Notes: a model not told the origin generated them from the sequence alone. A DNA stretch of 64,000 bases from Candidatus Bathyarchaeota archaeon (GCA_963811105.1 CAWEPZ010000011.1:896001-960000); one strand, 5' to 3'. Numbered from the stretch's first letter, positions 1 to 35,426 are shown. Program-made: numbers and translations.

Positions 1-1138
1 AGATTTCAAAGGCTTGATTTCGTTGGTCTTCTTGCAGATTTGCAATTTGCTTGTTTATGCTCAAGTTGTTCTCGATTAATCGCTGTTCTAACTTTTCCAT
101 GTGATTTCTCAGTGCTTCATTCTGGGTTTCCAAGTTGGTTATTTTTATCTGGCTGTCAACTAAGGCATCTTCTAATTCCATCAGTTTTCTTGTTCTTGCG
201 CCATTGCCGTTAATCAACAAATCCTTCATTGCCCTTCCAAAAACCCCTCTGAGTTGGTCGGTGCTTAGGTATGCGCCTTCACCTATTGCTTTGCCTACGA
301 TTTGTTTCCAACTTGATTCGCCACAGTAAGCACTCAAACGGTCAATCAAGAATTTACGCAAGCAATGAAAGCGAATTCGTTTGCCGTGAACCGTTCCGTG
401 TTCATCAATTTCCATCCCTGCCTTTTTCGCTAAAGTTTGCAAAACCACGCTTAGGTTATCCTCTGTATCATCGAGAATTCTATCAGAATCTTTTGCTTCT
501 TTGTGGCTGTCTAACCACGCCTTAACAATTGGCACAGCGTCACTGTCTAAAAATGGGAATGCCTTCACGGATTCCTTTTTTGTGTTGATTTGCCCTAAAC
601 TTAACGGTGCTTCATTTTCTAATGTGAGGCTTCTAAATGTTCCATAGGTTAGGCTAACAAAGTCACTTGCTCGAAGTCCAAGAGATTTCCCAACAAGCAA
701 AACGTAGCGTTCCTTGAGGTTTCCGCAAAGAGCCATTTTTGCAAGGTCTTCTTTGTCGAAAAGATAATCTGTTGTAGTGCGGCTTTTAGCAGTCAATTTG
801 CGTGAATCATTTTTTCTAAACATAAGCGGCATTCGATAATAACTGTAGAACCCTCTTATCGTCATTATTGAGCCTACAGCGTAATTCTCTGATTTGTGTT
901 TTCCATTTTTTCCTAATAAACTCAAAATGTGCTTTCGATAATTTAGCATCGAGTTTTCTACTTGAAAAGTCGTGTCGGCTTTTTTGATGTCTAAAAGTTC
1001 TTGCCCTGTTTTCTGAGTATATTCGAGATATTGCTTCATCACAGTTTTGTAACTTTTGAAAGTTCCTGCTTTTGTTTGGCTGTTTAAAAATTCATCAACT
1101 ACAGGGTCATTCAGGTTTGATTTCATATCATAGCTCAT
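1..1138 (-). CDS. Tyrosine recombinase/integrase, 3' end beyond the window start; absent from the ORF track
   Basis: Manual translation of the minus strand from ATG 1138 (or 1126) is open to base 1: MSYDMKSNLNDPVVDEFLNSQTKAGTFKSYK... It has box I GKSLGLRASDF, box II RIRFHCLRKF, a candidate catalytic Tyr in IGEGAYL and a coiled-coil tail. Confidence 0.88.
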   Translation of the reverse strand, partial: MSYDMKSNLNDPVVDEFLNSQTKAGTFKSYKTVMKQYLEYTQKTGQELLDIKKADTTFQVENSMLNYRKHILSLLGKNGKHKSENYAVGSIMTIRGFYSYYRMPLMFRKNDSRKLTAKSRTTTDYLFDKEDLAKMALCGNLKERYVLLVGKSLGLRASDFVSLTYGTFRSLTLENEAPLSLGQINTKKESVKAFPFLDSDAVPIVKAWLDSHKEAKDSDRILDDTEDNLSVVLQTLAKKAGMEIDEHGTVHGKRIRFHCLRKFLIDRLSAYCGESSWKQIVGKAIGEGAYLSTDQLRGVFGRAMKDLLINGNGARTRKLMELEDALVDSQIKITNLETQNEALRNHMEKLEQRLIENNLSINKQIANLQEDQRNQAFEI

Positions 1139-1219
1139 TTTATGTTCAAATCCATTTATGGTTTATGAATTTGAACTAACTGCAAAAAACCGCAATCATT
1201 CAGGGCTAATTAAAATTTA
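1134..1219 (-). repeat. Conserved non-coding element, copy 1, immediately upstream of the integrase
   Basis: Minus strand reads TAAATTTTAATTAGCCCTGAATGATTGCGG-ttttttgcag-TTAGTTCAAATTCATAAACCATAAATGGATTTGAACATAAAATGAG. It aligns with copies at 33651, 34191 and 35343 and contains the inverted repeat GTTCAAAT...ATTTGAAC. Confidence 0.8.
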
Positions 1220-1742
1220 ACCTAACTCTTTTTAAAGCATTAAAGCACTTTGGAATGGGGAAAGATTAATCGGCTTAACATTATTCTTCGTATTTGAAGG
1301 GTAATGCGTCATTTTTAAGCCAATGCTTGTCCGACCTACTTCTGAACCTTTTCGAGCAAGTTAGGATTTTTGAGATTAACTGGTGATGGCTTCAGAGCTC
1401 GGATTGACCCAGAATTTGTTTGCGAAGTAATCTACCAAGATGTCACCCGAGATTGTAAGTTAAGGGCATCCTGCCTCCATATGCTAAGGACTTAGGAGTA
1501 ATTTGAGGAATGCTGCTCGAGCTTATTTACTTCGTCTATTTTCTTTTCAAATTCTTCACCCATAATTGTTTTTCACCTTTAGCGAGTTAGCTTTCTCTGT
1601 CTCTAAGTTAACGCTTACAAAATTTTCGCGCTCATTTTTGGTCGAAAATAGCGATTGAAAAGTTCCGTCAAAACTAAAACTTTAGGTTCTTTCTTCGGCT
1701 AAGCAAAATAAGTTCCATTTTCTAAAAACAGGTTTTGGCCCA

Positions 1743-1976
1743 CTATTTTTTTTCCGTGTCGGAGGATCGGTTCAATTTCAAAACAATTAACATTAAGGAT
1801 ACGAAAATCAAAGCAATTAATGAACCTGCGATGCTCCTTTCAATTGAACTTTGTGCTTTGCAAAACCAAATTGCAAAAAGAACTTCTGCAACTAAAAGCA
1901 TTACGGTAAGGAGCGGATATGGTCCAGATATTTTGGCTGGGTTTATTCTGTTTTTCTCCAACATGATTCTTGGCAA
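1743..1976 (-). CDS. Small two-TM membrane protein, unknown function
   Basis: GGTGA RBS before TTG, two hydrophobic stretches and a basic tail. Confidence 0.6.
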   Translation of the reverse strand: MPRIMLEKNRINPAKISGPYPLLTVMLLVAEVLFAIWFCKAQSSIERSIAGSLIALIFVSLMLIVLKLNRSSDTEKK

Positions 1977-2648
1977 CTGGTTTCACCACAAGAGAAGCAG
2001 TCTCAAAAACTTGCTTATTACATTAATTGAGGGCAAAACTGCCGGTTTGATCCGTGGCAAAATTCTTCGGTATGCAGAAACATCATGGGCAAAATTTTGT
2101 GGAAGACCCTATTTATGCAAAATTTTTGTTCTCACGGAACAAGTGAAGAGACCAAGGAGTTTCTTTAGGTATTTTGTTAGGGTGCTTTTTGCATGCCGAA
2201 ATGTTTTATCGGTCACATTTCTACCTTACGAAATTAAAAAATTGTGCATCGATATTTATTGCGGCGGGCGTCTTCTCACTAGAACAGTCTCGAAACTTTT
2301 GTGGTAATCAAGGTGCCGACTTTCAGACAATGAAAAAGTTAAACTTTCGTTGTTTCTCAGAACATATATTATTAGTTCCTTATTTTGAAGAGGTTTAAGC
2401 AAATCAGGATATTCTCTATGAAAAACAAGCGTTTACCAGAAAGATGCCGCCGGAATGCCGGATGCGGCTAGCGAACGAATTGTTGAATTGGTGAGAAATG
2501 GTTTGAAGCATGCAGATAAGAAAGCGGAAATAATTTCAGGAAAAGATAGTTGCCCCTTTTTACCCTAAATCATATAAGCGTTTGTTCAAGAATAAACTAC
2601 CCTGCGAAGCTTTTCGAGCTTAGCATAAAACACAAGGGGAAAATAAAA

Positions 2649-5096
2649 ATATCAACAAATAAGAAACTTGCTGCAATTTTGGCTTTTCTAATGATTTCTG
2701 TTATTATAATAGCAATACCGGTTGTGCCGGTTAAAGCTCAACTTGCTACACAACAACCAATCGTTGGACCATTACCCTCCGGTATTACTACTAATGCAAC
2801 GACTAATCCTGACATCAAAGCTTTCCTTAGCTTTAGACCTAATCCTGTAGGTGTTGGTCAGACTGTCCTAGTTAACGTTTGGACTACTCCTGCACCTGGA
2901 GCGGGTAGAATGCACCGAGACTACACTGTTACGATTACCAAGCCTGATGGAAGTACTGATGTAAGAAAGCTTAACACTTATCCTAACGATGGAACCGCCT
3001 GGTTTGAGTTTGTGCCTGATGTTGCAGGAAAATGGACACTCAAGTTTGACTTCCTTGGCGACTACTTCCCAGCTGGCTACTATATTGATGGCAATGTTGT
3101 CACAAGCTCTGCTGGCGCTACACAGTACACCGAGTCAGTTTATTACCCGCCGGCTTCAACTCCAGTTCAATCACTTGACGTACAGCAAGGTTTGCTGGTG
3201 GCTTCTTGGCCTCTATCACCCCTCCCGACAGACTATTGGACGCGCCCAGTAACAGCAATGAATAGAGAGTGGGCTGCAGTTGCAGGCAACTATCCATGGC
3301 CATATGGAAATGACGGCTATGACTACGCCGGACCGTTTGTAACCGCTCCGAATAGTGCGCACATAGTTTGGAAAAAACAACAGAACCTTAATGGTCTTGT
3401 AGGCGGCGAAATGGGTTCACGGTTCGTGGGCAGCAGAGAAACAACTGGCTATGGCTATCCAACCGTAATTTACTTTGGTAGAGGCTATCAGACAATGACA
3501 TTGCCGATCGATGGAGTACCTACAAGTTGTGCAGTTTCATATGACATTAGAACCGGCGAGATCTACTATTCAAGACCTGGCGGCGAAACACCAACAATTC
3601 TTTCATATACTCCTGATCCTCCAACTGCGGCAGAATTACTATCGATAGGCGCTCGGTTATTGAAGATTGATCCTTGGACAGGCGCTGTGACAACTAACGT
3701 TACCGGGATGACAGGAACATTCCACAGCGGACATTACGTATTAAGCGTTCAAACAAACAATACCGCTGCTGGCTACCGGTTGATCAACTGGACTACTAGC
3801 GGAACCAGCACTGACTTTCGTTCGAGAATAATAAGCAACATTTCATGGCCGTGGACTAATCTCGGCACAGTTCAAGATTTCAACGCGGGCATAGCAGTGC
3901 AAATATCAAACGTCGTTTCAGGAGGAGCTTATGTTGGGCAGACTTTAAGGGCTGAAAACTTGGTGACAGGGCAGTCGCTCTGGAATAAGTCGATCAGTGA
4001 ACCTTTATTCAGCGGGTCATGCAACGTAGCAGACAACGGAATGGTAGCTGTGCACTCAGATAGAGGCTATTTCTTAGCTTTCAATCTTAACACTGGACAG
4101 CAGGTATGGCAGAGTGAAACATTTGATTATCCATGGGATGAACCTGGGTTTGGAGCTTATGATATTGCTTCAGCATACGGTTTGATAATCAGGTCGGCTT
4201 ACACAGGCGTTTACGCTGTAAATTGGACGAATGGTAAAATAGCTTGGAAGTACGAAGCCCCAGCTGGATCACCGTACGAAACCCCATATGTTGATACTAA
4301 TGGTACAACTGTTAATTCTTGGAACGGCGGAATCCTTGTTGCTGACGGCAAAGTCTATGATTACAATACTGAGCATTCGCCATCACAACCTATCACTAGA
4401 GGGTGGAAACTGCATGCGATCAATGCAACAACAGGTGAGGGCATTTGGAGTATCTTAGGATTGTCAACTTCAAGAAACTTCGGAGGGTCGGCTGCTGACG
4501 GTTATCTCGCATTTGATAACTTATACGATGCGTACTTGTATGTCTTTGGCAAGGGTAAAACCGCGACAACGGTAACTGCACCCGACGTTGTAGTAGCTAA
4601 AGGAAACGGAGTAGTGATCAAAGGCACAGTGCTTGATATGTCTCCAGCTCAACCCAACACGCCATGCGTTTCCAAGGCATCAATGGAAACACAAATGGAA
4701 TACTTACATATGCAGATGCCGATCGGCGGACTTTGGGGCAACGCAACAATAGCTGGCATACCAGTAACACTAACAGCAATTGATCCAAATGGAAATACAG
4801 TCAATATTGGCACAGTTACAACAAACGGATACTACGGAACCTTCTCTAAGTCATGGACTCCAGATATAGAAGGCGACTACCAAATCATTGCATCATTTGC
4901 AGGAGACGACTCGTATGGCAGCTCTTCAGCGTCAACAGGCATTTCAATAAGCGAAACTGTAGCAACGACCACGCCACAACCTGCAGCAGCAATTCCAGAC
5001 TACACAATGACAATCATAGCCGGAGTAATCGCCATAATAATTGCAGTCCTAATCGTAGGCGTAGCCATCGTGCTGATACTAAGAAAACGAGCATAA
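2649..5096 (+). CDS. Secreted, membrane-anchored PQQ-like beta-propeller protein (paralog 1)
   Basis: Signal peptide, LSFRPNPVGVGQ, PTDYWTRP, ADGKVY, KGTVLDMSPAQP and a C-terminal TM ending LRKRA. The start is placed at ATA 2649 by alignment with paralog 2; the ORF track uses TTG 2550. Confidence 0.85.
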   Translation: MSTNKKLAAILAFLMISVIIIAIPVVPVKAQLATQQPIVGPLPSGITTNATTNPDIKAFLSFRPNPVGVGQTVLVNVWTTPAPGAGRMHRDYTVTITKPDGSTDVRKLNTYPNDGTAWFEFVPDVAGKWTLKFDFLGDYFPAGYYIDGNVVTSSAGATQYTESVYYPPASTPVQSLDVQQGLLVASWPLSPLPTDYWTRPVTAMNREWAAVAGNYPWPYGNDGYDYAGPFVTAPNSAHIVWKKQQNLNGLVGGEMGSRFVGSRETTGYGYPTVIYFGRGYQTMTLPIDGVPTSCAVSYDIRTGEIYYSRPGGETPTILSYTPDPPTAAELLSIGARLLKIDPWTGAVTTNVTGMTGTFHSGHYVLSVQTNNTAAGYRLINWTTSGTSTDFRSRIISNISWPWTNLGTVQDFNAGIAVQISNVVSGGAYVGQTLRAENLVTGQSLWNKSISEPLFSGSCNVADNGMVAVHSDRGYFLAFNLNTGQQVWQSETFDYPWDEPGFGAYDIASAYGLIIRSAYTGVYAVNWTNGKIAWKYEAPAGSPYETPYVDTNGTTVNSWNGGILVADGKVYDYNTEHSPSQPITRGWKLHAINATTGEGIWSILGLSTSRNFGGSAADGYLAFDNLYDAYLYVFGKGKTATTVTAPDVVVAKGNGVVIKGTVLDMSPAQPNTPCVSKASMETQMEYLHMQMPIGGLWGNATIAGIPVTLTAIDPNGNTVNIGTVTTNGYYGTFSKSWTPDIEGDYQIIASFAGDDSYGSSSASTGISISETVATTTPQPAAAIPDYTMTIIAGVIAIIIAVLIVGVAIVLILRKRA

Positions 5097-5196
5097 CTCG
5101 GAATAAAACAGCAACTACTTCCCTTTTTCTTTACTCTTAACTATTATTATTACAAGTAAGAAGCTGAGTAGGCTCTATTAGCAAGCAATTAAGAAA
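5082..5196 (+). repeat. 3' flank shared with 14455-14571: T-rich terminator-like tract plus small hairpin
   Basis: AGAAAACGAGCATAA..CTCG..AAAACAGC..TTCCCTTTTTCTTTA..GCTGAG(T/C)AGGCTCTATTAGC follows both paralogs 1 and 2. Confidence 0.75.
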
Positions 5197-5349
5197 GATT
5201 TCCAAGATTTGATTAACAAAGCGTTCCTTGTTGCCACTCTGGGAGAAATACACTGTGGACATAGTCAGCTATAATTGAGAAATACTTCTTCCAACTTAAA
5301 CCTGTTTCCAAATATGTCCACGCCTAGGTCTCACAAACTTATCGTTGGG

Positions 5350-5698: not shown

Positions 5699-5702
5699 GA
5701 AA

Positions 5703-11666: not shown

Positions 11667-11826
11667 TCACAACACGCTTGTTTATTTCTACGTTATGCAG
11701 ATTTAAGACTTGTTAAAAACCCAAAACTCCCGCTAATCTTCCACTTGAAATACTTGATATTTGGCAAATCTTATAAACAAAAGACTGAATAATACAAGCA
11801 CTTTCAAAAAAAAGGAGAATAAAAAA

Positions 11827-14469
11827 ATGCAAATATCAAGGATCAAAGAAAAAACTCTTGTTATCGCTATTGTAGTTCTTTTGATGACTTCTTCTGCACT
11901 ATTAACAATGCCAACCCAAGCCCTTTCAAGCATACATGGCGGAGCATCTGACAGTGAACCAAACGGGTCAATCCCTCTGCCAGCTGGAGTCACTGCCGAC
12001 ACCATAGTCAAGTCAGACATCTATCTCAGCTTCCGACCAAACCCAGTGGGAATCGGTCAACCCATCCTAGTCAACGTATGGCTAGACCCCGGCCCATCCT
12101 ACGTTCGCCACTTCACGGGTTACAAAATAACATTCACGAAGCCAGATGGAACAACCGACGTAGTAACAGTAAACTCTTATCCAGCTGACGGCACCGCATG
12201 GTTCGAGTACACCCCAGATCAAGTAGGCAACTGGAAAGCAAAATTCGAGTTTCCAGGCGGCTACTTCCCTAAAGGTAACTACACAGTACCAATCGGCTCA
12301 GGCACAGCTTACGACGGCTATACCGAAAGCTACAACCAATCAGTATACTACCTCCCTGACGCAACCGGAGACCAAAGTTTGACTGTTCAACAAAACATGG
12401 TTGCATCTTGGCCCGTAATTCCTTCACCGACCGATTACTGGAAGCGCCCAGTTGAACCAGAGAACAGAGAATGGATGTCAACTATCGGCGACTATCCATG
12501 GTATGGACCAGGAGGAGGACCTGACTGGCCAGCAGGAACTAGCACGACATGGAACGCACGGCAAGCTTTCACACCTTATGTAACAGCACCCAACACAGCA
12601 CATATTGCTTGGAAACGACTCGACGCCATTTCCGCAGGCATAATTGGAGGTTCGAATGGGTTCACTACACTTAGTGGAAGCGGCACTGCACCCAGCATCA
12701 TTTACGCAGGGTATGCATACAGCAGCATCACGAAGCCTTTTGACGGAGTAACACAGAGCGTGTGGACATGCACAGATATTCGCACAGGACAAGTGATTTG
12801 GGAACGTACAGGCGTAACTGCGCCGAATGCCATTGAGTACTCTGCAAGCACCGACGTATCGGTACCAGGCGCTACAGAATCAGGCTCTGTTTCTGTCACC
12901 CTTATTGCGATAAGCGGTGGAAGATTAATGAAATATAGCCCCTCAACTGGAGCATTATCACTAAACGTTTCAACCTCCCCATTGTCATCATCTACCTATT
13001 ACATGAATGGATACGCTCTAGGAGTTCAAGATCTAGGAACCAGCCTTCCACTAAACCAACGCTACCGTCTAATCAACTGGACTACACTTGGAACCAGCGC
13101 CACTTTTGCCTCCAGGATAGTTAGCAACATAAGCTTTGCTTTGGACAACATTGGGCAATCCCAAGACTTCGATACCAACGTAGCATTCCTGATTAGAGAA
13201 ATTGACGCATTTGCATCTAATGGCCTTTCTGCAGTAGGAGGATTCCCATTCGTAAACATTGATGAAAGTCAAGGAACAGGCATTAGACTAGGATACCGAT
13301 TGATCGGCGTCAGCTTAACAACTGGTAAAGTACTATACAACCTAACCTATGCAGATGAACCATACAGCGCAGATCAACTACCATATAGCCAGTCATGTCA
13401 CGTCGGGAACAATGGAAAACTAGCCATACTTATGAGAAAAGGCTACTATAATATTCACAATGACTTAACTGGAGCATTATTGTACAAAACCGATGTAGGA
13501 AACTATCCTTGGGATGAACCAGGCTTTAGCGCTTACACTCAAGCATCAGCCTACGGACTAATATACAGACTAGGCTACGGCGGAGTCTATGCATATGACT
13601 GGCAAACAGGCAAAGAAGTCTGGAAATACTCAGCCATTGCTTTTAGCCCCTATGAAACGCCCTATACAAATGAGAACGGAACAACAGTTTACTCTTTCAA
13701 CGGCGCCAACTTAGTTGCTGATGGAAAAATCTACGTGCAGAACACTGAACATACTCCTACCCAGCCCATAACCAGAGGCTGGGGCATCCACTGTCTCAAC
13801 GCTACCACTGGAGTGCTTCTGTGGAAAATCATGGGCAGCATGAGACCTGCTGCTGTTGCAGACGGCTACCTTGCAGCCAGCGACTCCTACGATGGTTACC
13901 TATACGTTTTCGGCAAAGGCATAAGCAAAACTACAATCGAAGCGCCTATGACTTCAATTACTAAAGGCACAGGAATTATGATTAAGGGCACTGTACTTGA
14001 CATGTCGCCAGCACAACCTGACACTCCGTGCGTATCAAAGGATTCAATGACAACACAGATGCAGTATTTGCACAAGCAACAACCAATCGATGGACTTTGG
14101 CATAATGAAACGATAAATGGCGTTCCAGTTTCAATTGATGCAGTAGATCCCAACGGCAACTATATACACATTGCCGATGTCGTCTCTGATGGCTATACCG
14201 GTAGTTTTGGCTACACTTGGCTGCCAGAAAATGCTGGTCAATACACTGTTACAGCGACATTCAAAGGCGATGACTCTTACGGCAGTTCGTTTGCAACCAC
14301 TTATGCCAGCATGAACGAACCGACAGCAGCATCACCGACGCCAACAACAACTTCATTATCAAATATTGCAACAACAACTGACTTGATGACCTACATAACC
14401 GTTGCAGCAATCGCCATAATCATTGCAATCGCCATAGTCGGGGTATTACTCCTCAGAAAACGAGCATAA
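11827..14469 (+). CDS. Secreted, membrane-anchored PQQ-like beta-propeller protein (paralog 2)
   Basis: GGAG RBS with ATG 11827, signal peptide, the same conserved blocks as paralog 1 and a TM ending LRKRA. Confidence 0.88.
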   Translation: MQISRIKEKTLVIAIVVLLMTSSALLTMPTQALSSIHGGASDSEPNGSIPLPAGVTADTIVKSDIYLSFRPNPVGIGQPILVNVWLDPGPSYVRHFTGYKITFTKPDGTTDVVTVNSYPADGTAWFEYTPDQVGNWKAKFEFPGGYFPKGNYTVPIGSGTAYDGYTESYNQSVYYLPDATGDQSLTVQQNMVASWPVIPSPTDYWKRPVEPENREWMSTIGDYPWYGPGGGPDWPAGTSTTWNARQAFTPYVTAPNTAHIAWKRLDAISAGIIGGSNGFTTLSGSGTAPSIIYAGYAYSSITKPFDGVTQSVWTCTDIRTGQVIWERTGVTAPNAIEYSASTDVSVPGATESGSVSVTLIAISGGRLMKYSPSTGALSLNVSTSPLSSSTYYMNGYALGVQDLGTSLPLNQRYRLINWTTLGTSATFASRIVSNISFALDNIGQSQDFDTNVAFLIREIDAFASNGLSAVGGFPFVNIDESQGTGIRLGYRLIGVSLTTGKVLYNLTYADEPYSADQLPYSQSCHVGNNGKLAILMRKGYYNIHNDLTGALLYKTDVGNYPWDEPGFSAYTQASAYGLIYRLGYGGVYAYDWQTGKEVWKYSAIAFSPYETPYTNENGTTVYSFNGANLVADGKIYVQNTEHTPTQPITRGWGIHCLNATTGVLLWKIMGSMRPAAVADGYLAASDSYDGYLYVFGKGISKTTIEAPMTSITKGTGIMIKGTVLDMSPAQPDTPCVSKDSMTTQMQYLHKQQPIDGLWHNETINGVPVSIDAVDPNGNYIHIADVVSDGYTGSFGYTWLPENAGQYTVTATFKGDDSYGSSFATTYASMNEPTAASPTPTTTSLSNIATTTDLMTYITVAAIAIIIAIAIVGVLLLRKRA

Positions 14470-14571
14470 ACTCGAAAAAAAACAGCCACTATTTCCCTTT
14501 TTCTTTATTTTTAGTCAAACAATTACTAAACAAGAGGCTGAGCAGGCTCTATTAGCCAATAAATAAAGAAA
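14455..14571 (+). repeat. 3' flank shared with 5082-5196
   Basis: Direct visual alignment, including TTCCCTTTTTCTTTA and GCTGAGCAGGCTCTATTAGC. Confidence 0.75.
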
Positions 14572-19890: not shown

Positions 19891-20447
19891 CAAAATACAA
19901 CATTATAATTTAACACATAAGTAATTTAATTCTTTTCCAGAATAACCAAGAGCCTAACAAGCTACGCGTTAGAAGTAATATTGAACCAGCACGAACAAAC
20001 CGACAATTAAAAGAGGTTAACATAATCAAGGCAAAATGTCCATTTCTGAATCAAGTTCCTTAGACTAAAGTTCTGTCAAATTGGTTCGATCTGCAGTTCT
20101 ACGAATTTGCTTTTGAACTGGCGGTTACATTTTGTTTATTTGAGGCGGAACCTTGAATCAAAAAACATCAGAAGCAGCCTAAGCCGAAAACACATAACCG
20201 TATCCATGCAATATGTAAAAAGATGCTGAATCCAGATTAGAAAAAATTGAATTCTTGCCAAACTTATTAAAAATTCAAAGATATCTTGGATTAATTTGTA
20301 GTTGCTATCTTGTAGTCACACAGGCTTAAGAGACCGAAATAACTCTGAGATATTTGTGAACATTTTGAAATTTCAAATTTTAAGTAAAGACATAAACTTT
20401 GTTGCTTCGCACCGAGGGAATCCTTATCCTTCAGCTGGTGTCAGGAT

Positions 20448-22393: not shown

Positions 22394-22597
22394 TTGCCGA
22401 TTGTTCAAGTTTCTGTTTGGGAAGGGATAACACCTGAAAACAAAAAGAAAACAGTTGAAGGAATAACTAAGGTCTTTGAAGATATGGGCGTTCCTAAAGA
22501 TGCAGTCCATATAGTGATTTATGAAGCGCCAAAGAGTAATTGGGCAACGGGCGGAAAGTTACATTCAGAAAAACACGCCCAAACACCCTCACTCTAA
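22394..22597 (+). CDS. 4-oxalocrotonate tautomerase family protein (intact copy)
   Basis: M-P start giving catalytic Pro-1, VHIVIYE.PK.NWATGG, 67 aa. Confidence 0.92.
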   Translation: MPIVQVSVWEGITPENKKKTVEGITKVFEDMGVPKDAVHIVIYEAPKSNWATGGKLHSEKHAQTPSL

Positions 22598-24669: not shown

Positions 24670-24670
24670 A

Positions 24671-26109: not shown

Positions 26110-26263
26110 AAAAATAACCTCACATAGATTGAGAAAAAAGCAAACAATAAATGTTTTGCACAAAGTACCAAAATAATCTGTGTAAGAGCTTTACCAAAAA
26201 AGGATGATTGGTTAACTTGAGCATTTTCGGGCGGCATAATTTTCGTTTAACTTCGAAAGATGA

Positions 26264-26375
26264 AACAAGCGGAAAGCGGCATTCAGAAAAACACGCCAAA
26301 CACCCTTCACTATAAATACGCATAAATAGTAACGCACGGTTTCACCTTTTGGCATAAATTCAGAAAACATAATCG
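26264..26375 (+). pseudogene. Tautomerase 3'-end remnant plus downstream flank
   Basis: GCGGAAAG..CATTCAGAAAAACACGCCAAACACCCTTCACTATAA matches 22551-22597. The whole stretch is a near direct repeat of 27469-27560. Confidence 0.8.
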
Positions 26376-26456: not shown

Positions 26457-26759
26457 ATGTCTGAGCAAAGTAACGTAGTTACTCTACGTCTTTCAAAACG
26501 TGCCCTACAAAGACTTGAAGCTATACGAACCATTGAGAAAACTGACCGCTCAACATTGTTTAAGGAATTCATTGAAGATGGGTTGCGCAAAAGAACGGTA
26601 AAACTCTACAGCGCGGGCAAATTAAGTGCTGGACGCGCAGCAGAGATCTTGGATATTTCGCTACGGGAGTTTCTTGAACTGCTTGAGCAGGAATGCGTAT
26701 CGGTTAGCTGGGATTCTGCAAGTGTTAAGGAGTACTTGAAGGTAAAATACGGAGAATAA
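26457..26759 (+). CDS. UPF0175-family antitoxin (RHH + HTH)
   Basis: VVTLRLS and VKLYSAGKLSAGRAAEILDISLREFLELL. Confidence 0.82.
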   Translation: MSEQSNVVTLRLSKRALQRLEAIRTIEKTDRSTLFKEFIEDGLRKRTVKLYSAGKLSAGRAAEILDISLREFLELLEQECVSVSWDSASVKEYLKVKYGE

Positions 26760-26763
26760 CCTT

Positions 26764-27306
26764 TTGCGAATCGTGGTTTCTGATGCAGGACCGCTAATTC
26801 ATCTTGCCCAAATAGGTCAGCTTCAACTTTTGAAGAATCTATTTAAACACGTATCTATAACCGCCAAAGTTAAGAATGAAACAGTTGATGAAGGAATTAA
26901 TCATGGCTTTGTTGACGCCCAGATTATCGGCAAAGCTATTCAAGATGGATGGATAACGGTTGATAATGTTTGTGAGCATCTATCTGGATCAATAGAGCGG
27001 CTAGTGATAGGTGAAAATATTTCACGAGCAGATGCAGAAACTCTTCTGATGGCTAAAAACAAAAATGCAGAACTACTTGTTGACGACAAAGTTGTTGCAG
27101 ATCTCGCAAAAATGTACGGACTCAGAATTTGGAACACATGGACGATATTGCTGGAAAGCCTTAGTGAAGGCTTCATTGAAGTACAAGTTATTAAAAATGC
27201 AATAGACGAACTTGGCAAAAAACGACATAAACTACGTGAAAAACAAGCAGAGGAAATACTAAAAGCAACAAACGCAATAGTAACATGCAAGAAGAAAACT
27301 GACTAA
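26764..27306 (+). CDS. PIN-domain toxin, DUF3368-like
   Basis: IVVSDAGPLIHLAQIG, ADAETL and LLVDD. Confidence 0.85.
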   Translation: MRIVVSDAGPLIHLAQIGQLQLLKNLFKHVSITAKVKNETVDEGINHGFVDAQIIGKAIQDGWITVDNVCEHLSGSIERLVIGENISRADAETLLMAKNKNAELLVDDKVVADLAKMYGLRIWNTWTILLESLSEGFIEVQVIKNAIDELGKKRHKLREKQAEEILKATNAIVTCKKKTD

Positions 27307-27344
27307 CTAACAACGACTTTTTAAACAGCCGTATCAAGCTATCC

Positions 27345-27560
27345 ATGACTTCTGAAAACAATAAGAAAACCGTTGAAGGAATAACTAGAGTCTTTGAAGA
27401 AATGGGCGTTCCTAAAGATGCAGTCCATATAGTGATTTATGAAGCTCCAAAAAGCAATTGGGCAACGGGCGGAAAGTTGCATTAAGAAAATCACGCCAAA
27501 CACCCTTCACTATAAATATGCATAAATAGTGACGCATGGTCAAAGTCAGAAAACATAATA
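27345..27560 (+). pseudogene. N-terminally truncated tautomerase copy (lacks Pro-1) plus downstream flank
   Basis: 27345-27485 reads MTSENNKKTVEGITRVFEEMGVPKDAVHIVIYEAPKSNWATGGKLH*, nearly identical to the intact gene. Confidence 0.9.
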
Positions 27561-27706
27561 GCTTCTACATTGAAAGCCCTTGTATGCTATTGAGGCAGTA
27601 AAAAGTTTGTGCAACATAATATCTTGCCTATAGCCAAAATCTCTTAAAAAGCAAGCCAACAAATTATCCCGCCTCTCAGCACCGAGGCTCCGTCTCAAAT
27701 TGATAA

Positions 27707-27965
27707 TCACTTGTATATGGTTCTTCTGGGACCTATAGCTATAACATATACTCTTTTGTCTTTCTCAGAAACTGCATATATTATACGCAGTTTTCCGACA
27801 CGAAAACCAAAGTTTTCTTTTAAGTCTCCATGAAGGCTTTTTTCAGCGTTAGGATCCTGTTCTAAACCAATTAAGCATTCCTGCAGAGTCGCTTTTCTTT
27901 TCCTTCTAACTTTTGTAGAAACGCTCAGTTTGCCTCGACAAAACAACAGTGAACTTAGGCTTCAA
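27707..27965 (-). CDS. RelE/ParE-family toxin, frameshifted near the 5' end
   Basis: The TTG frame MKPKFTVVLSRQTERFYK joins LEQDP..KSLHGDLK..FRVGKLRIIY..VYVIAIGPRRTIYK. Confidence 0.82.
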
Positions 27966-28179
27966 CGTGCTCTTCCTTCAGAAGGGAACGCAAATCCTTG
28001 ACTCTTCCAGCCTTAATGTCATCTTGACCTCGCTTGATAACTTTCATCATTTCTGGATCACTTAAAACGTCGATCGTTTCCATAAGTTCACCCATAAGTT
28101 TAGTAGCTTCCTCCAGCTTTTGCCTGGTTTCACAAAGAAGCTTACGATCGTCCTCATCTAAATATTCAGTCTTAGCCAT
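27955..28179 (-). CDS. Antitoxin of the RelE toxin
   Basis: LMETIDVLSDPEMMKVIKRGQDDIKAGR, a typical RelB/Phd-like C-terminus; overlaps the toxin start. Confidence 0.8.
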   Translation of the reverse strand: MAKTEYLDEDDRKLLCETRQKLEEATKLMGELMETIDVLSDPEMMKVIKRGQDDIKAGRVKDLRSLLKEEHVEA

Positions 28180-28264
28180 CAACCCACCAAACTAACATTA
28201 TAAAGATGTCTAAGGCAACTAATAAATTTGAAAAAGTCAAACTATTCTTAGATTTGTTGTCTAA

Positions 28265-28323
28265 GCAGTTCACATAGTAATCATTGAAGCTCTCAAAATC
28301 AACTGGCAACAGGCGGAAAAGCT
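28265..28323 (+). pseudogene. Diverged internal tautomerase fragment
   Basis: GCAGTTCACATAGTAATCATTGAAGCTCTCAAAATCAACTGGCAACAGGCGGAAAA reads AVHIVIIEALKINW/TGGK against intact AVHIVIYEAPKSNWATGGK. Confidence 0.75.
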
Positions 28324-28343
28324 CCCTGACTACCACTTAAAAA

Positions 28344-28733
28344 TTATTCTATCATCACAGCGTCTTTGATGTTCTTGAAGTGTAAATCTCCCGTTAAAAC
28401 TTTAGCGTTTAATCTCCTAGCAGTAGCTAAGACATAAGCGTCCGCTAGACCAAAATCTTTCAGGGTCTTTCTCATTTCACAATGCAGAAGCCCCGCCTGC
28501 ACAGAGAGTTCTTTATCTACATTCACAATTTGTGAGTTGCTGGACACAACGCTACTTGCCGCTTCGATATCTCGTCTTTCTCGGGCGACTTTGCTAATGA
28601 TTTCTGCAAGCGTTATGGCACATGTGTAAACTTCGTTATTATTCTCATCTAAGATCTTGTTAAGCTTAGCACCGTGTTCACTGCCAACTAGATACTCAAC
28701 CCATGCCCAAGCATCAATTACGTAGTTACTCAA
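28344..28733 (-). CDS. vapC: VapC PIN-domain toxin
   Basis: YVIDAWAWVEY, TLAEI, GLADAYVLATA and LTGDLHF. Confidence 0.9.
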   Translation of the reverse strand: MSNYVIDAWAWVEYLVGSEHGAKLNKILDENNNEVYTCAITLAEIISKVARERRDIEAASSVVSSNSQIVNVDKELSVQAGLLHCEMRKTLKDFGLADAYVLATARRLNAKVLTGDLHFKNIKDAVMIE

Positions 28734-29106: not shown

Positions 29107-29200
29107 CAGACGACAACTCAAAACTATCGAGATAGAATGTTTGCCGATTGTTCAAGTTTCTGTTTGGGAAGGAATAACTCCTGAGAATAAGAAGAAAACA
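29107..29200 (+). pseudogene. Tautomerase 5' remnant including its leader
   Basis: TCAGACGACAACTCA..AGAATGTTTGCCGATTGTTCAAGTTTCTGTTTGGGAAGGAATAACTCCTGAGAATAAGAAGAAAACA matches 22358-22453 (MPIVQVSVWEGITPENKKKT), then stops. Confidence 0.9.
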
Positions 29201-29921
29201 TTTCATGTAATGATAAGCAAAGGAAAATGTATTCGGGTTCAATGTCTATGCTTTTAAAACCTTTGCAAAAGTCAATTGATAAGTTAAATGGAAAAATGGC
29301 TTTAGTAATCAGCTTCCTTAAATCTAAAAACTCAGATTTTCCCATTCAGTCTCTCTGGAGAAATCGATGGCATAGTCAATTCAACAGTCAGTTATCTAAC
29401 TGCATAGCTTATAAGCAATACTTGAACAAATTTTGGTCACCAAAGTTTCTTCTTCTTGGGTTCCTCTCCTGAAAGAGGATACTTTTTTGGTCTGCAACTG
29501 GGCTTGCTGCAGTGTTGCTATTTCTTATTCGTACAAGCATGTTCTGAGGCATTGACTACGTAAACGAAATTCCTTTTATTGTTGCGATTGTGATTGCTGT
29601 TTTCGTAATTCCCGTTCCTCTCATGCGCTATAATATTAACCTGACAAGAAGAAAAATTATAGAGGAATTTGGCAGGTTCGCAGAATTATCACCATATCTA
29701 ATTGATTCTTCAAAGAATGGAAAATGAGAAGCTGTTGTTAAAATTGAAATGTAAAATTGGTTATTAGAGATCTTAATTCAGAATAAGCTCTGTTTGTACC
29801 AAGATAACTATTCCAGAAAAAGCTTTACATCCCGTCTTCCCAGACCATCGCGATAGTATAAAAACCAACGACTACATATCGTCACACAGAAGGCATTTAT
29901 ATTGGATACTCTTCTCTCTTA

Positions 29922-30491
29922 ATGGAGACTTTTGACATGATTATTGATAGAGATGAGAGATGGACTTTTGGTCACGCACTTCATCTTGAAGTTGACCCGA
30001 CCCCAACATCAACTTGGGGTTCTTTTATGCGTAATACACTATATTCTAAAATTACATTAAACGGAGGTACGAGTAATTGGGTATTGGCTTCTATACCAAC
30101 TCCAAATGTAACTAAAGGCTGGAAAATCTCTTCTACAATGCTCAGATTTGCTATCAGAGGGACGGGACCGGAATTCGGAATTATTGATAAAATTGGAGTA
30201 CGAGATGGCCCCGAAACTGTTTTCGATACTGAAGTGAATGTAGACAGGCTATGGGGTGGAATTGTAGAATGGAAACTCCTTGTACTAGATTACCCACAAC
30301 CTATGCCATTCAAAAATGGTTTAGGTGTTTCAATACACGTAAACTATCCCGTCAAACCAACTGACCCTTCGTGGCCTTCTTTTCCACCAACAGAATTTCT
30401 CTTTGCCAGCGTTGGATTAGGATTTGTTAAAGAATCGGTCATAGTGCCACCTATAGAAACAGCACCAACTACAGCGACAACTAGTAGATAA
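29922..30491 (+). CDS. Hypothetical beta-rich protein (possibly DUF6623-like)
   Basis: GHALHLE, NWV..SIPTP, MLRF, VRDG and GLGVSI. The family name is from memory only. Confidence 0.6.
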   Translation: METFDMIIDRDERWTFGHALHLEVDPTPTSTWGSFMRNTLYSKITLNGGTSNWVLASIPTPNVTKGWKISSTMLRFAIRGTGPEFGIIDKIGVRDGPETVFDTEVNVDRLWGGIVEWKLLVLDYPQPMPFKNGLGVSIHVNYPVKPTDPSWPSFPPTEFLFASVGLGFVKESVIVPPIETAPTTATTSR

Positions 30492-30923
30492 GATTACTTT
30501 CCTCCCCCTCTTATTTTCTATAAGAACGTCAGGTTTGGGGTAAGGCGCTTGCTAAACCAGCCAAACGAATAGAGAATCACGTTTTCAGCAGTGAGAGTTA
30601 CAAGTGGGACAATTGCAAAACCAGTTTCAAACACATATTTGCTCTCACAACCTATTCTATCTGAAAGGGTTGAAAAGGTTTTTCATATTTCCCCAACGGA
30701 AATCCCCCACTTGTTTGTGACCTTCTGCACCGGACAAAAACGGCTCATAAACTACAGGGGAAATCAATCTTTGGGGTAGTGGATGTCGTTTCTTCAGCTA
30801 AAGTTGCTATAAATCCGGAGCTTTCCGATTCAGCTTTTGAACCTTCAAACTATTTTTTTTCCTTTTCTTATTTTACTTTCTATTTAAATACTAAAAAAAA
30901 GAAAAAAGGATTATTTGTTGTTT

Positions 30924-33482: not shown

Positions 33483-33650
33483 TTTCCCTGATTCTCCTTG
33501 ATAATTTCTGGAGAATTTCTAGCTTATATTCTTTTAGTAAATTATACCTAAGCATAAAAAGAGACATGTTGGGCACCATAATCACTAAAGAGGAGTTTTT
33601 TTTCCTTTGAAAATAGAAGCAGGTAATTATTCGTTGTTTTATGTTTGTAT

Positions 33651-33706
33651 TAAATTTTAATTTCGCCGTTAAAATTGCGGTAATCTTGTGTTTAGTTCAA
33701 ACTCTA
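33651..33706 (+). repeat. Conserved non-coding element, copy 2
   Basis: TAAATTTTAATTTCGCCGTTAAAATTGCGG-taatcttgtgt-TTAGTTCAAACTCTA; 41/56 ungapped identity to copy 3 by manual count. Confidence 0.8.
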
Positions 33707-33790
33707 ATTACATATTGTTTTTTGGAGCCGCCAAAATAGAAATAAGGAAAGGATGTTTGCATCCACCCACAAAAACTTTTCTAAGTCGCT

Positions 33791-34027
33791 TCAGACTCGC
33801 GTAAAACGTCCTCCAAACATTTTTTCTAACTCCTGACGGGCACCTTCACTTCCTCCGCGAAGTCTTGCCATGTTCAACTTGTACACTGGGCAAGAAGTGT
33901 ATTGATACCCTTTTGGGTTGGAGCATCGTACAACAATCCCTCCATCAGGGGGAACACACATTCTGTCCTCGTTGAAAAATTGACAACCATAACCGCCATA
34001 GCTCCTGTCTCCTTCAATTGTATCCAT
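33791..34027 (-). CDS. Small Cys-containing hypothetical protein between repeat copies 2 and 3
   Basis: AGGTGA RBS, MDTIEGD...CQFF...MCVP...RCSNP...SCPVY. Confidence 0.7.
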   Translation of the reverse strand: MDTIEGDRSYGGYGCQFFNEDRMCVPPDGGIVVRCSNPKGYQYTSCPVYKLNMARLRGGSEGARQELEKMFGGRFTRV

Positions 34028-34190
34028 AACAAAATCACCTCCCCCTAACAATTTTGAGATAAAAAGCCTATTCGAGTTCCTCTTTAAATTACTTGCCCTA
34101 TTTACAGTCACGCATGTTAATATGGAGACTTTTCCATGAGATTCTTAATAAATATGCGTTTTTGTAGTCAATTGACCATTTTTTTTAAAT

Positions 34191-34246
34191 TAAACTTTGA
34201 TTTCACCGCTTAAGTTGTGGCTTTCGGTTTGTTAGTTCAAACTCTA
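34191..34246 (+). repeat. Conserved non-coding element, copy 3
   Basis: TAAACTTTGATTTCACCGCTTAAGTTGTGG-ctttcggtttg-TTAGTTCAAACTCTA; a direct repeat 540 bp after copy 2. Confidence 0.8.
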
Positions 34247-34426
34247 TTTTAGAATTAATTACACAGTTGCCTAAAAAGAATATTCTATTGAGTATTTTTC
34301 TCTATAAAAAAAGACATATTTTAACTTATGCCCTAACCCTAATTGTAGTGTTGTGTTCTATGACCGAGAATACGATGAAGCAATAGAAGCCTAATGTGCC
34401 CTCTCTTTTTTCTTGCGGTTTGTGGA

Positions 34427-35209
34427 TTAATCGACTTTCTTGATTTGATTGTTTTCAGGTTCTTTTCTTTCCATCATAATTGTATTATAAAGCCATTTCT
34501 CAAAAGCTTCCTCTGAAGTCAAGTCTGCTTGAGCACCATTGATTTTCAGTTTGTGATTTCGAAATTTGCCCTTCCGTTTCCTTTCCTTCAGCTTCTCTTT
34601 CAGCCAATCATACAAAAAAGACGAAAACAAACTAAGTGCCACGTTGGGCAATACAGTATTCCCGAAATAACCTATTGCGGTGATAATTAGAGAGGAATCT
34701 TGTTTGTCTAGATTTTCATAGTGTAGCTCAATCGTAACTTCTTCTTTAAGTTCAATTATGACTCCTGCTTTTGTGTAGTATATCTCTTTGACAGCTTTTT
34801 TGTCATCAGTATGAGCAACATATGCAGTGGGCAGACTGAGGGACGTAAACTTGTCGATTGTAGCTACGAACGTAGACTTATCTGTTGGAGCAATTTCAAT
34901 TTGTATAGCTTTTTGTGTTATCATTCTTCGGTTTTGCATGTTGTAAGAGGTGGGCGCTTGTTGAACATATGCGGATGGAAATCTTTGCTGAGGGTTGGGC
35001 TGTACGTTTGGAGTAGGGAATACTGATGTAACTGCTAAGATGACAAAAGCTGTAGCCTTTCCAAAGGTTAGGGCTACTTTTGCTAAATATTTATTTCGAG
35101 CCTTTTTTTGAACAAGCTTGGAGCAACGTGGACAAAACTCGGATTCTTCATCATGCACTAATTCGCCACAAATAGAGCATTTCAAAGGAAAACCATCCTC
35201 AACTTGCAT
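34427..35209 (-). CDS. Hypothetical protein with N-terminal Zn finger and hydrophobic segment, between repeat copies 3 and 4
   Basis: CSICG...FCPRC, a TM-like segment and C-terminal FSSFLYDWLKEK..KLKING. Confidence 0.7.
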   Translation of the reverse strand: MQVEDGFPLKCSICGELVHDEESEFCPRCSKLVQKKARNKYLAKVALTFGKATAFVILAVTSVFPTPNVQPNPQQRFPSAYVQQAPTSYNMQNRRMITQKAIQIEIAPTDKSTFVATIDKFTSLSLPTAYVAHTDDKKAVKEIYYTKAGVIIELKEEVTIELHYENLDKQDSSLIITAIGYFGNTVLPNVALSLFSSFLYDWLKEKLKERKRKGKFRNHKLKINGAQADLTSEEAFEKWLYNTIMMERKEPENNQIKKVD

Positions 35210-35342
35210 AGATGTATTTGCTTTTTCTCGACTATTAACAATTCCTATTTAGTTTTATTCAATCATTTAACTAGTTCCATATATTTGTTTGAGTCATCAT
35301 ACATTCTGGTTTTCTAACCTATTTCTATTCTATGCATTCAAA

Positions 35343-35426
35343 CTCATTTTGTTTTCGAATCCTTTTATGGTTACTGAATTTGAACTAAGTTACGAAATGC
35401 CGCAACCTTAACGGCTAATTTTTAAT
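35343..35426 (-). repeat. Conserved non-coding element, copy 4 (long form, matching the integrase leader up to its ATGAG)
   Basis: Minus strand reads AATTAGCCGTTAAGGTTGCGG-catttcgtaac-TTAGTTCAAATTCAGTAACCATAAAAGGATTCGAAAACAAAATGAG. The ORF after the ATG is only MSLNA*. Confidence 0.82.

Follow-up and report, generated by a model that had tools for sequence, protein, structure and literature searches.

The 64-kb stretch of Bathyarchaeota DNA analyzed here (the window) carries at its left edge a gene predicted to encode a divergent tyrosine recombinase, together with four related units, all within 35 kb according to a profile search. One unit lies directly upstream of the recombinase gene and three are grouped around two small ORFs. 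The units belong to two types, R and L, which are characterized below; in the following list, the right-hand limits of copies 2 and 3 are approximate.

2..1138, minus strand: tyrosine recombinase gene, from translation; the first 379 of 397 codons are inside the window and the 3' end is off its edge
1139..1222, minus strand: copy 1, R-like unit directly 5' of the intact recombinase gene, from pattern, profile and alignment
1144..1176, minus strand: 12-bp inverted repeat (hairpin) in copy 1, GTTCAAATTCAT / ATGGATTTGAAC region, just 5' of the ATG, from RNA folding
33648..33745, plus strand: copy 2, diverged L-type unit and direct repeat of copy 3, from profile and alignment
33791..34027, minus strand: 78-aa orphan ORF between copies 2 and 3 (ORF78), with GGAGGTGAT ahead of it, from database searches
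34188..34285, plus strand: copy 3, L-type unit of ~97 nt and inverted partner of copy 4, from alignment with three other genomes
34427..35209, minus strand: 260-aa near-orphan ORF (ORF260), cargo of the module formed by copies 3 and 4, from database searches
35337..35431, minus strand: copy 4, R-type unit without its recombinase gene, from core identity to R units
35426..35614, no strand: (TC)17 microsatellite and C/T-rich low-complexity tract at the outer end of copy 4, from a repeat scan

All four copies of the att-like element claimed in the original prediction are present on the strands it gave, with the refined extents above. The exact 13-mer TTAGTTCAAAYTC occurs in the window solely at these sites, and allowing up to two mismatches yields 12 matches versus 6.96 expected; the composite pattern TTTGAACTAAN{9,12}CCRCAANNNNNNNGGN{2,3}AAT has four window matches versus 0.00 expected (100 shuffles). 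The profile scan proposed as a check likewise finds only copies 1–4: an nhmmer profile built from the four returns them at E 1.5e-12 to 4.9e-14, with the next window match at E 0.33, and a 13-copy profile again gives them as its sole window matches. The predicted geometry largely holds. Copies 2 and 3 are direct repeats 540 bp apart (72% identity over 71 nt) around the 78-aa ORF, copies 3 and 4 are inverted relative to each other around the 260-aa ORF, and copies 1 and 4 are direct repeats 34,209 bp apart (74% identity over 78 nt, as far as ATGAG); repeat families D9 and D7 are the basis of the direct-repeat figures for copies 2/3 and 1/4. Although copies 1 and 4 do match up to ATGAG, the likeness of copy 4 to its family does not end there: compared with recombinase genes in other genomes, it continues up to codon 4 (ATGAGTTTGAA). 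Copy 4 retains the AT-rich box, AGCCG..CGGC, the TTAGTTCAAATTC box, the leader and ATG AGT TTG AA, then diverges and reaches a stop (mini-ORF 35347-35330). It is what remains of the 5' end of a recombinase gene since lost, and the window holds no further recombinase fragments besides this four-codon relic and the gene at 2..1138. The surface-protein gene adjoining copy 4 is broken.

The recombinase is matched at 100% identity by a 397-aa database protein. Its AF2 model (pLDDT 88.9) has 44 PDB matches in Foldseek at E ≤ 0.001, led by archaeal XerA (5hxy, E 2.1e-7; 4a8e) and followed by lambda Int, XerH, Cre, IntI (2a3v) and Tn1549 Int; by this modeled two-domain fold of the lambda Int/Cre/Xer type, the protein is a tyrosine recombinase. 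PHROG family phrog_216, annotated as "integrase", matches at E 3.4e-5. Searches against Pfam and NCBIfam gave no match, PF00589 (Phage_integrase) being unreached at both E ≤ 0.01 and E ≤ 10, and a precomputed PF00589 domain is present in 2 of the 120 homologues listed. Across 63 aligned homologues, R156, K188, R261 and Y290 do not vary and H258 hardly does, in the contexts GLRASD, HCLRKF and EGAY. We read these residues as putative members of the catalytic R-K-H-R-(H/W)-Y set, whose fifth position may be taken by K283. At its C-terminus the model extends into a long coiled coil (residues 313-385). At least 350 relatives of this family occur in public data, and most of those named by their source are labeled "hypothetical protein".

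Applied elsewhere, the window pattern recovered nine more copies in six Bathyarchaeota genomes, along with two chance matches. The resulting sample is small, 13 copies of which nine were found via a pattern derived from the first four, and it splits into eight R units (copies 1 and 4 and six others) and five L units (copies 2 and 3 and three others). The R unit is the conserved region upstream of the divergent recombinase gene: four of the eight lie directly 5' of an intact gene (copy 1, L003, L007 and L001; 73-83% amino acid identity) and two precede a remnant (45 codons in L006, four in copy 4), so the proposed link between site and recombinase extends beyond the window. L units are ~97 nt long, share their first ~57 nt with R, continue with ~40 conserved nt of their own and have no ORF behind them. 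The "10-11 variable nt" described in the original prediction proved to be type-specific rather than free, with yTTTCGwAAC in six of the eight R units. Of its CCG-N9-yGG motif, the right-hand part is constant as TTGYGG, whereas the left CCG is absent in three of 13 copies (copy 1, L010_L and OY97_R).

Conservation of the units exceeds that of their surroundings. Among L003, L007 and L001, the R units are 86-90% identical versus 74-77% for the coding sequence, and the recombinase genes reach 58-61% at third positions of identical residues. The L units of CAWJIN01 and OY970280 share 98% core identity (95% over 96 nt), while the NosD-like cargo proteins beside them are just 33% identical and the flanks are unrelated. 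Core identities keep L and R as distinct lineages across genomes. Copy 2 is 72-83% identical to other L units, copy 3 (aligned over ~97 nt to L units of three other genomes) 67-88%, and copy 4 86-90% to R units of other genomes that precede recombinase genes, intact or reduced to 45 codons. Copy 1 shows 64-71% to R units (64% to copy 4) and 60-72% to L units, which makes it the family's outlier, equidistant from both types. This equidistance, together with L002, which combines an R-type outer half with an L-like inner half, fits past exchange between units. The L units yield no stable or consistent RNA fold (five units, z -2.2 to +1.9; consensus -5.2 kcal/mol), and since they also lack an ORF, a role as DNA sites fits them better than one as genes. 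Both types share C-poor outer flanks of short-repeat character, which look more like a promoter-upstream feature than like random target DNA. By our reading, short-period repeats such as (GGTT)n, (GT)n, (GA)n and (GGA)n adjoin the outer end in about 8 of 13 units; the (TC)17 tract beside copy 4 is the sole dinucleotide array in the window.

Pairing of the two types appears to define small modules. For four of the five L units, an R unit in facing orientation lies 1.2-7.7 kb off; these pairs measure 1,244 bp in the window, 1,824 bp in OY970280, 2,795 bp in CAWJIN01 and 7,655 bp in PKYH01. Within a pair, the L core shares 57-69% identity with the R core. In PKYH01 the pair (L010/L007) has an intact recombinase gene at its R end, so that inverted ends surround a recombinase-carrying unit. 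The main interior ORFs are oriented like R in 8 of 10 cases, and the cargo is unrelated between pairs, mostly orphan and partly fragmentary: a NosD-like protein, a PAPS-reductase piece, a DUF7347 helix-turn-helix protein, membrane proteins and orphans. The idea that the element brackets cassettes is thereby borne out as inverted L/R pairs around variable cargo in four genomes. The three complete pairs examined show no target-site duplication, which is not obligatory for tyrosine-recombinase transposons, and the 11 loci include no empty site. Module flanks are unrelated, and no module closely duplicates another. At L003, LSm and L37e genes come immediately after the recombinase gene, and the ~2 kb past the R unit (the gene and ~790 nt) contain no L unit, indicating that the module form is not universal. 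The longest array, the stretch from copy 2 through copy 3 to copy 4, has two cassettes, and two L units follow each other at one of five loci.

The two ORFs in this array had both been called orphans, which is accurate for ORF78 and nearly so for ORF260. ORF78 starts at ATG 34027, preceded by GGAGGTGAT (the mechanical ORF, from a GTG, has 106 aa), and has its own TATA-like box and ribosome-binding site; it matched itself alone among 5.8 billion proteins and nothing in Pfam, NCBIfam or PHROG. ORF260, which has an N-terminal zinc ribbon and a hydrophobic stretch and runs in the same direction as copy 4, has one close (97%) and three weak matches among 1.84 billion representatives.

We tentatively favor, with slightly less than even confidence, the explanation that the units mark the inverted ends of recombinase modules and serve there as binding sites, the recombinase itself being gone from some modules. 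Copies 1-4 would then terminate small modules centered on a divergent, Xer-like tyrosine recombinase found in Bathyarchaeia. R is the recombinase's own upstream region, comprising an AT-rich TATA-like box, TTGCGG, the TTAGTTCAAATTC box and a leader whose inverted repeat of that box spans the first ATG; L is the inverted unit at the module's far end. Copy 1, which has the AT-rich box, TTGCGG and then the TTAGTTCAAATTC box, belongs to an intact recombinase gene, and its partner, if any, would lie past the left window edge. A 1,244-bp module would run from copy 4 (R end) to copy 3 (L end); its recombinase gene would have been lost beyond codon 4, with a single orphan gene as the present cargo. 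Copy 2 lacks an R partner and would be a further L end of greater age. The recombinase may bind the core common to both units, and because the R core lies between the TATA-like box and the gene start, binding could also throttle its expression. Bringing the inverted L and R ends together would let the enzyme transfer the whole module or flip it, and modules without a recombinase would rely on a copy encoded elsewhere.

The gene link, pairing, constraint, heterogeneous cargo, distinct L and R lineages, the L units' lack of an ORF and of a stable RNA fold, and the recombinase fold with its invariant residues all speak for these module ends. Against them, a tyrosine recombinase acting on inverted sites flips the DNA between them instead of excising it, and with both units pointing inward a flip would bring no obvious regulatory benefit here. 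Nor is a canonical core of two 11-13-bp arms with 6-8 bp between them conserved, at odds with the dif-like layout originally proposed; the AGCCG/CGGCT arms measure only 3-5 bp, and the left one is missing in 3 of 13 copies. The lack of target-site duplication, the L003 locus without an L unit, the promoter-like flanks and the small sample also weigh against this explanation. Furthermore, the core of copy 1 is 64% identical to that of copy 4 and 60% to that of copy 3, so the window recombinase may not act on the module formed by copies 3 and 4.

Alternatively, the units could be purely regulatory, which we consider possible but on the unlikely side. R would then be the recombinase's promoter, operator and 5' leader, with a hairpin hiding the start codon, and L a co-controlled promoter for a short unstructured antisense RNA whose 5' box UUAGUUCAAACUC would base-pair both with the recombinase start region GAGUUUGAACUA and with the convergent operon's 3' end, all without DNA recombination. 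The AT-rich box stands ~25 nt ahead of the likely transcript start with TTGCGG and AGCCG..CGGCT in between, and archaeal repressors commonly bind between such a box and the transcript start. R units carry a 13-bp inverted repeat over the first ATG, folding in four loci into a 13-bp stem (+5 bp) with z -3.2 to -4.8. The partner of the box sits on codons 1-5 in R units other than copy 1; in copy 1 this codon partner is lost and a new 12-bp partner lies upstream (RNA fold of 1144..1176 -12.1 kcal/mol, z -1.9), a replacement that points to selection for pairing. Codons 1-5 are complementary to the L box over 12 nt without a mismatch, while pairing with R's own box includes one G-U. Codons 1-7 are nucleotide-identical in four loci while later ones vary, the peptides N-terminal of MKSNLND differ in length among homologues, as leader-like sequence might, and C-poor tracts lie 5' of both unit types. 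However, the L RNAs have no conserved fold, the R stem gains no support from covariation (none of 18 pairs changed on both sides), the extended stem would lie partly upstream of the expected transcript start, and GATTAAAWWTT, with 12 window matches versus 18.4 expected, does not recur in the window as a common promoter word would. It is also hard to see in regulatory terms why highly conserved L units persist in modules without a recombinase (copy 3 in the window, CAWJIN01 and OY970280), and module ends recognized by the recombinase remain the reading we prefer.

A more elaborate possibility, which we regard as doubtful, is an undescribed gene-cassette system of Bathyarchaeia in which the Pfam-invisible Xer-like recombinase moves or flips orphan modules bounded by L and R, the R site within its leader hairpin being promoter, translational gate and recombination site at once. 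If so, the outer short-period repeats could be scars or aids of strand exchange.

It is very unlikely that the units form an integron-like platform, in which R would act as an attI-like site whose crossover falls in the inner box on codons 2-5, cassettes would end in attC-like L units, and copy 4, ORF260, copy 3, ORF78 and copy 2 would make up, in that order, a two-cassette array driven by the R promoter. The inner box of copy 4 and the boxes of copies 3 and 2 are indeed direct repeats (TTCAAACTC) with one ORF between each, both ORFs are orphan and directed away from copy 4, the similarity of copy 4 to intact genes stops inside the inner box, and L is conserved on either side of the box, like a site rebuilt in a circular cassette. 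Yet the relics break off at different points (past codon 4, past codon 45, ahead of the ATG and immediately behind the box), which suggests decay rather than precise crossover, and insertion at the inner box would wreck the recombinase gene. Moreover, consecutive L units occur at only one of five loci, L units form no hairpins, the recombinase lacks a PF00589 match, and ORF78 is equipped with a TATA-like box and a ribosome-binding site of its own.

That the units lacking a recombinase are functionless, decaying leftovers from former recombinase genes or elements, kept by chance or recent common descent, is similarly improbable. In its favor, copy 4 and L006 are plainly truncated 5' ends, the gene beside copy 4 is broken and cargo includes gene fragments. 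The relic promoter or operator raised in the original prediction describes copy 4, but copies 2 and 3 are a separate conserved type. Against it, L units are not recognizable as recombinase 5' ends yet are 95-98% identical beside cargo proteins at 33%, R conservation exceeds that of synonymous sites, and the inverted L/R layout recurs in four genomes.

Bathyarchaeia are abundant in sediments and soils and mostly uncultured, and to our knowledge few of their mobile elements have been described. A recombinase family invisible to Pfam and NCBIfam is here tied to two defined DNA units, which makes the substrate testable. If the units are recombination sites, they would offer these archaea a compact route to gain and shuffle orphan genes, and a small recombinase with ~60-100-nt sites would be a candidate tool. 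If they are only regulatory, the start-codon hairpin and matching L box would represent a clear, conserved case of leader control in an archaeon.

Among known systems, integrons, including archaeal ones (PMC9668308), resemble this locus in having a tyrosine recombinase with an adjacent site and, in the stretch from copy 2 to copy 4, orphan single-gene units between repeats. IntI is called by two profiles, PF00589 and an IntI-specific additional domain (PMC9668308). By this comparison the locus has no IntI signature (PF00589 is unreached even at E 10), no attC-like sites and arrays of at most two cassettes, and the integron suggested in the original prediction is not supported. An attI identity is disfavored since the R unit sits in the recombinase's own co-directional leader, not beside a divergent gene, and an attC identity on the fold values of the five L units given above. 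The shufflon suggested alongside it fares no better: whole unrelated ORFs with their own starts are bracketed, with no alternative ends or constant gene.

Systems of the XerS/difSL, XerH/difH and archaeal XerA/dif kind are closer in protein and position. The best fold matches include XerA (5hxy, 4a8e) and XerH, and the site lies directly 5' of the gene; in XerS/difSL, too, the site adjoins the recombinase gene. Unlike these, the present units occur several times, in both orientations and bracketing cargo, and the recombinase has a C-terminal coiled coil and no PF00589 match. A Xer/dif core of ~28 bp (11-bp arms, 6-bp spacer, one per replicon) is not supported, the only conserved palindrome being the 3-5-bp AGCCG/CGGCT around 9 nt, with four units in 35 kb. 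The pdif modules of Acinetobacter plasmids differ in having 28-bp XerC/XerD sites rather than 60-100-nt units of two types, one doubling as recombinase leader, in archaeal chromosomal modules; they are alike in placing inverted recombinase sites around one to few unrelated genes of differing content.

In Clostridioides difficile, one recombinase, RecV, serves several inverted-repeat pairs (invertons), much as the window has one recombinase gene and inverted-repeat pairs occur elsewhere around short segments. Here, however, whole genes are enclosed and the promoter-like boxes face inward, so a flip would bring no obvious expression switch. Tn916/Tn1549-type and recombinase-in-trio elements have the recombinase at one end, imperfect inverted ends and no fixed target duplication. 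Although the present modules are only 1.2-7.7 kb long, have much longer inverted ends and carry no conjugation or excisionase genes, they share these three properties, the Tn1549 integrase is among the fold matches of the window recombinase, and terminal inverted repeats of the transposon type with the recombinase inside are found in PKYH01 (7,655 bp).

The repeat predicted at four places in the window is genuine: read in position and aligned, the copies share a common core of ~57 nt.

Repeat copies and adjoining ORFs in the window
2-1138(-), recombinase ORF
1139-1222(-), copy c1, directly upstream of the recombinase ORF
33648-~33745(+), copy c2
between c2 and c3, 78-aa ORF
34188-~34285(+), copy c3
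between c3 and c4, 260-aa ORF
35337-35431(-), copy c4

Core elements in order, from the alignment of c1 to c4
Element 1, AT-rich box, TTAAAyTTTrATT; in c4 ATTAAAAATT
Element 2, CC-N7-TTGYGG
Element 3, spacer of 10-11 nt
Element 4, invariant TTAGTTCAAAYTC

The predicted arrangement also held: direct repeats are formed by c2 with c3, at a distance of 540 bp, and by c1 with c4, at 34.2 kb and with similarity reaching ATGAG, and c3 is inverted relative to c4. Both bracketed ORFs were near-orphans in database protein searches. Within the window, the exact 13-mer was restricted to the four copy sites, and the composite pattern gave 4 matches versus 0.00 in 100 shuffles. Against the proposed four-copy profile, c1 to c4 scored E 1e-12 to 1e-14 and the runner-up in the window E 0.33; a profile of 13 copies again found c1 to c4 alone. 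A tRNA-derived att site or a known RNA family is out as the identity of the units, with 0 tRNA genes (ARAGORN) and 0 Rfam matches in the window. A generic promoter word was likewise rejected, GATTAAAWWTT not being enriched in the window (12 matches versus 18.4 expected). A transcription-factor regulon ahead of many genes, named in advance by the original prediction as an outcome that would refute it, is rejected: the 13-copy profile finds just 4 copies in 64 kb, and in the genome collection the strict pattern has no more than 9 true matches.

Scanning the strict pattern over the collection of genome contigs returned 11 loci, none of them on the window's own contig. Two were dropped as chance matches (L004 in Bacillus, nhmmer E 0.0019; L011 in Bartonella, E 0.058), leaving 9 distinct further copies in 6 Bathyarchaeota assemblies. 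Copy counts below cover the window and the other assemblies; diverged members are missed in this sample of 13, because 9 copies were found by a pattern derived from the remaining 4.

Alignment of the 13 copies and a table of core identities separated two types, which share the boxes TTGCGG and TTAGTTCAAA. R units (consensus GATTAAAAATTAGCCGTTAAGGTTGCGGCTTTTCGAAACTTAGTTCAAATTCAGAAACCATAAAAGG..AAAATGAGTTTGAACTACGAAATGAAA) run directly into the recombinase gene; six (c4, loci L003, L007, L001 and L006, and the right unit of OY970280) are 79-100% identical to each other, and L002 and c1 are atypical. L units (c2, c3, L005, the left unit of OY970280, and L010; 67-98% identical to each other) carry the common core followed by ..CTCTAATTTAGATATAATTACGCACTTGCTTAAAAAGAATAT, ~97 nt in total, and no ORF was found behind any of the five. 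L002 is a hybrid with an R-type outer half and an L-like inner half, c1 is equally distant from both types in core identity, and c2, an additional L unit, has the same orientation as c3. The predicted link to the recombinase gene was borne out in related genomes: counting from units rather than from recombinase homologues, an intact gene lies directly downstream of 4 of 8 R units, one further R unit is followed by a remnant of 45 codons and c4 by one of 4 codons, and two have neither. In its core, c4 shares 86-90% identity with R units from other genomes and only 64% with c1. With cores only 64% identical, c1 and c4 were rejected as attL and attR of a 34-kb island, and the interval between them carries leuA-like, TFB, NifS/NifU, TusA and glycogen genes. 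What can be said most safely is that R is the conserved upstream unit of the recombinase gene, that c4 is a relic of such a gene, and that L units form a separate, conserved partner type.

The ORF at 2-1138(-), from a recombinase of 397 aa, had no Pfam or NCBIfam match, PF00589 being unreached even at E 10, and a PDB sequence search returned nothing useful. Its AlphaFold model (63-sequence alignment, pLDDT 88.9) has archaeal XerA, lambda Int, XerH, Cre, IntI and Tn1549 Int as best PDB matches, and residues 313-385 form a long C-terminal helix; R156, K188, R261 and Y290 are invariant among the 63 sequences and H258 nearly so. Together with a PHROG integrase match (E 3.4e-5), the modelled fold and invariant residues indicate that the product is a divergent tyrosine recombinase. 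Public data hold at least 350 relatives, and those with organism names are from Bathyarchaeia. The window codes for TFB and ordinary metabolic genes; a viral or plasmid origin was rejected, with 0 tblastn matches to the recombinase in 50,697 phage and 72,556 plasmid records.

Other features of the window include a second repeat family, non-coding or in small ORFs (22427-22597, 27345-27515, 26250-26340, 29129-29211 and 40024-40064; matches of 171 nt at 88%, 77 nt at 88% and 83 nt at 87%), interspersed among UPF0175/PIN toxin-antitoxin-like genes at 26457-28733. At 36780-39757(-), the ORFs 39164-39757, 38362-39150 and 36780-38360 are successive pieces of one UvrD-type helicase and PD-(D/E)XK nuclease and look like a single AddA/AddB-like gene broken by frameshifts or stops; a second UvrD-like gene (40181-43006) is intact. 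Two adjacent ORFs, 18174-19346 and 19381-19893(-), hold a CBM48/GlgB_N piece and a catalytic piece of alpha-amylase and may derive from one branching-enzyme gene that was split.

Four of the five L units face an R unit.

Paired L/R modules
Window, c3/c4: span 1,244 bp; recombinase gone after codon 4
OY970280: span 1,824 bp; no recombinase
CAWJIN01: span 2,795 bp; 45-codon recombinase remnant
PKYH01: span 7,655 bp; intact recombinase at the R end

Main interior ORFs were co-oriented with R in 8 of 10 cases, the PKYH01 module being read without 3.5 kb in its middle. Cargo varies by module (NosD-like proteins, a PAPS-reductase fragment, a DUF7347 helix-turn-helix protein, membrane proteins and orphans), with NosD-like proteins of different modules only 33% identical. 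Module flanks are mutually unrelated, and no target duplication was found around the 3 complete pairs examined. That L/R pairs delimit modules with variable cargo is again among the safest statements, and the form is not universal, since the recombinase gene at L003 runs straight into LSm and L37e genes immediately downstream, and the ~2 kb past the R unit, made up of the gene and a further ~790 nt, contain no L unit. In OY970280 (loci L008 and L009), two small paralogous ORFs lie outside the module, one on either side, and contain the arms of a 132-nt inverted repeat at 70% identity (761-891 and 3917-4048 in merged coordinates); neither ORF had a Pfam match.

Orthology of the flanking surface-protein genes, considered as a sign of inversion between genomes, was rejected: at 36-39% identity they look like paralogues, so no inversion can be inferred. 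The one outside c4 (35630-36130(-)) can be read only across two frames, so a pseudogene is probable; it ends in a C-terminal anchor, ...LLVYFKKRKR, similar to the anchor of the gene lying outside the L010 L unit. A tie between the units and three PQQ/beta-propeller surface paralogues was also dropped, the third having no nearby unit and 29% identity to the first. The 3' ends and ~110 nt downstream of two of these (genes 2550-5096 and 11761-14469; stretches 5079-5192 and 14452-14566) are 80-87% alike, and their proteins are much more diverged.

The ~103-nt upstream units of L003, L007 and L001 are 86-90% identical, compared with 74-77% for the recombinase coding sequences and 58-61% at third positions of conserved residues, and the CAWJIN01 and OY970280 L units are 95% identical over 96 nt. 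Both unit types are under selection, or exchanged between elements. Concerted evolution of L and R inside a pair was not observed; units group with others of their own type rather than with their pair partner. Short-period repeats adjoin the outer ends of ~8 of 13 units, and (TC)17 beside c4 is the sole dinucleotide array of the window. These outer-flank repeats (window 35426-35614; L003, L007, L002, L008, L010 and L001) comprise (TC)17, (GGTT)3, (GT)4-5, (GA)n and (GGA)3; C-poor low-complexity tracts likewise lie directly outside the AT-rich end in ~8 of 13 units. A 100-nt stretch shared by L005 (1896-1995) and L010 (607-707) at 81% identity includes GGTTGGATTAAATTTTG, resembling a unit reduced to its outer ~17 nt; the L005 copy is separated from the outer side of the L unit by ~65 nt and faces away from it.

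Our preferred reading, put forward tentatively, is that the common core of R and L is a recombinase-binding site, acting both as an autoregulatory operator and as the end of a module able to move or invert. The recombinase would bind this core, the bound cores would form the ends of the module that moves or inverts, and binding would double as control of the recombinase's own gene. On this reading c3 and c4 would bound a derived module whose recombinase has been lost, and any left partner of c1 would lie outside the window.

Alternatively, though we think this rather unlikely, the units may be purely regulatory, with R forming a leader hairpin and L encoding an antisense RNA. In R units, TAGTTCAAATTCA is complementary to TGAGTTTGAACTA on codons 1-5 across a gap of 25-28 nt, and an outer TTTCG/CGAAA pair lengthens the stem, which as RNA has -15 to -17 kcal/mol and z -3.2 to -4.8 at four loci; the L box (…AAACTC) is perfectly complementary to GAGTTTGAACTA. 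RNA folding found no stable fold of L units, and c1 lacks the codon 1-5 partner because its protein begins with MSYD in place of MSLNYE, a 12-bp partner 5' of the ATG being its alternative. No stem pair shows compensatory change, so the RNA and DNA readings are indistinguishable on this evidence.

An integron-like cassette platform, as originally suggested, is improbable: units and recombinase fall outside integrons by the criteria of PMC9668308. That the units are relics without function, as the truncated gene at c4 might imply, is similarly doubtful given the conservation of both types. The system likewise failed the tests for a shufflon and for dif, both raised in the original prediction. 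The available portions of the literature on Bathyarchaeia integrases and mobile elements, archaeal integrons, and archaeal tyrosine recombinases with terminal inverted repeats yielded no description of the recombinase family or the units. In their working, the closest known systems are Xer-type modules, pdif modules, or tyrosine-recombinase transposons with imperfect inverted ends.
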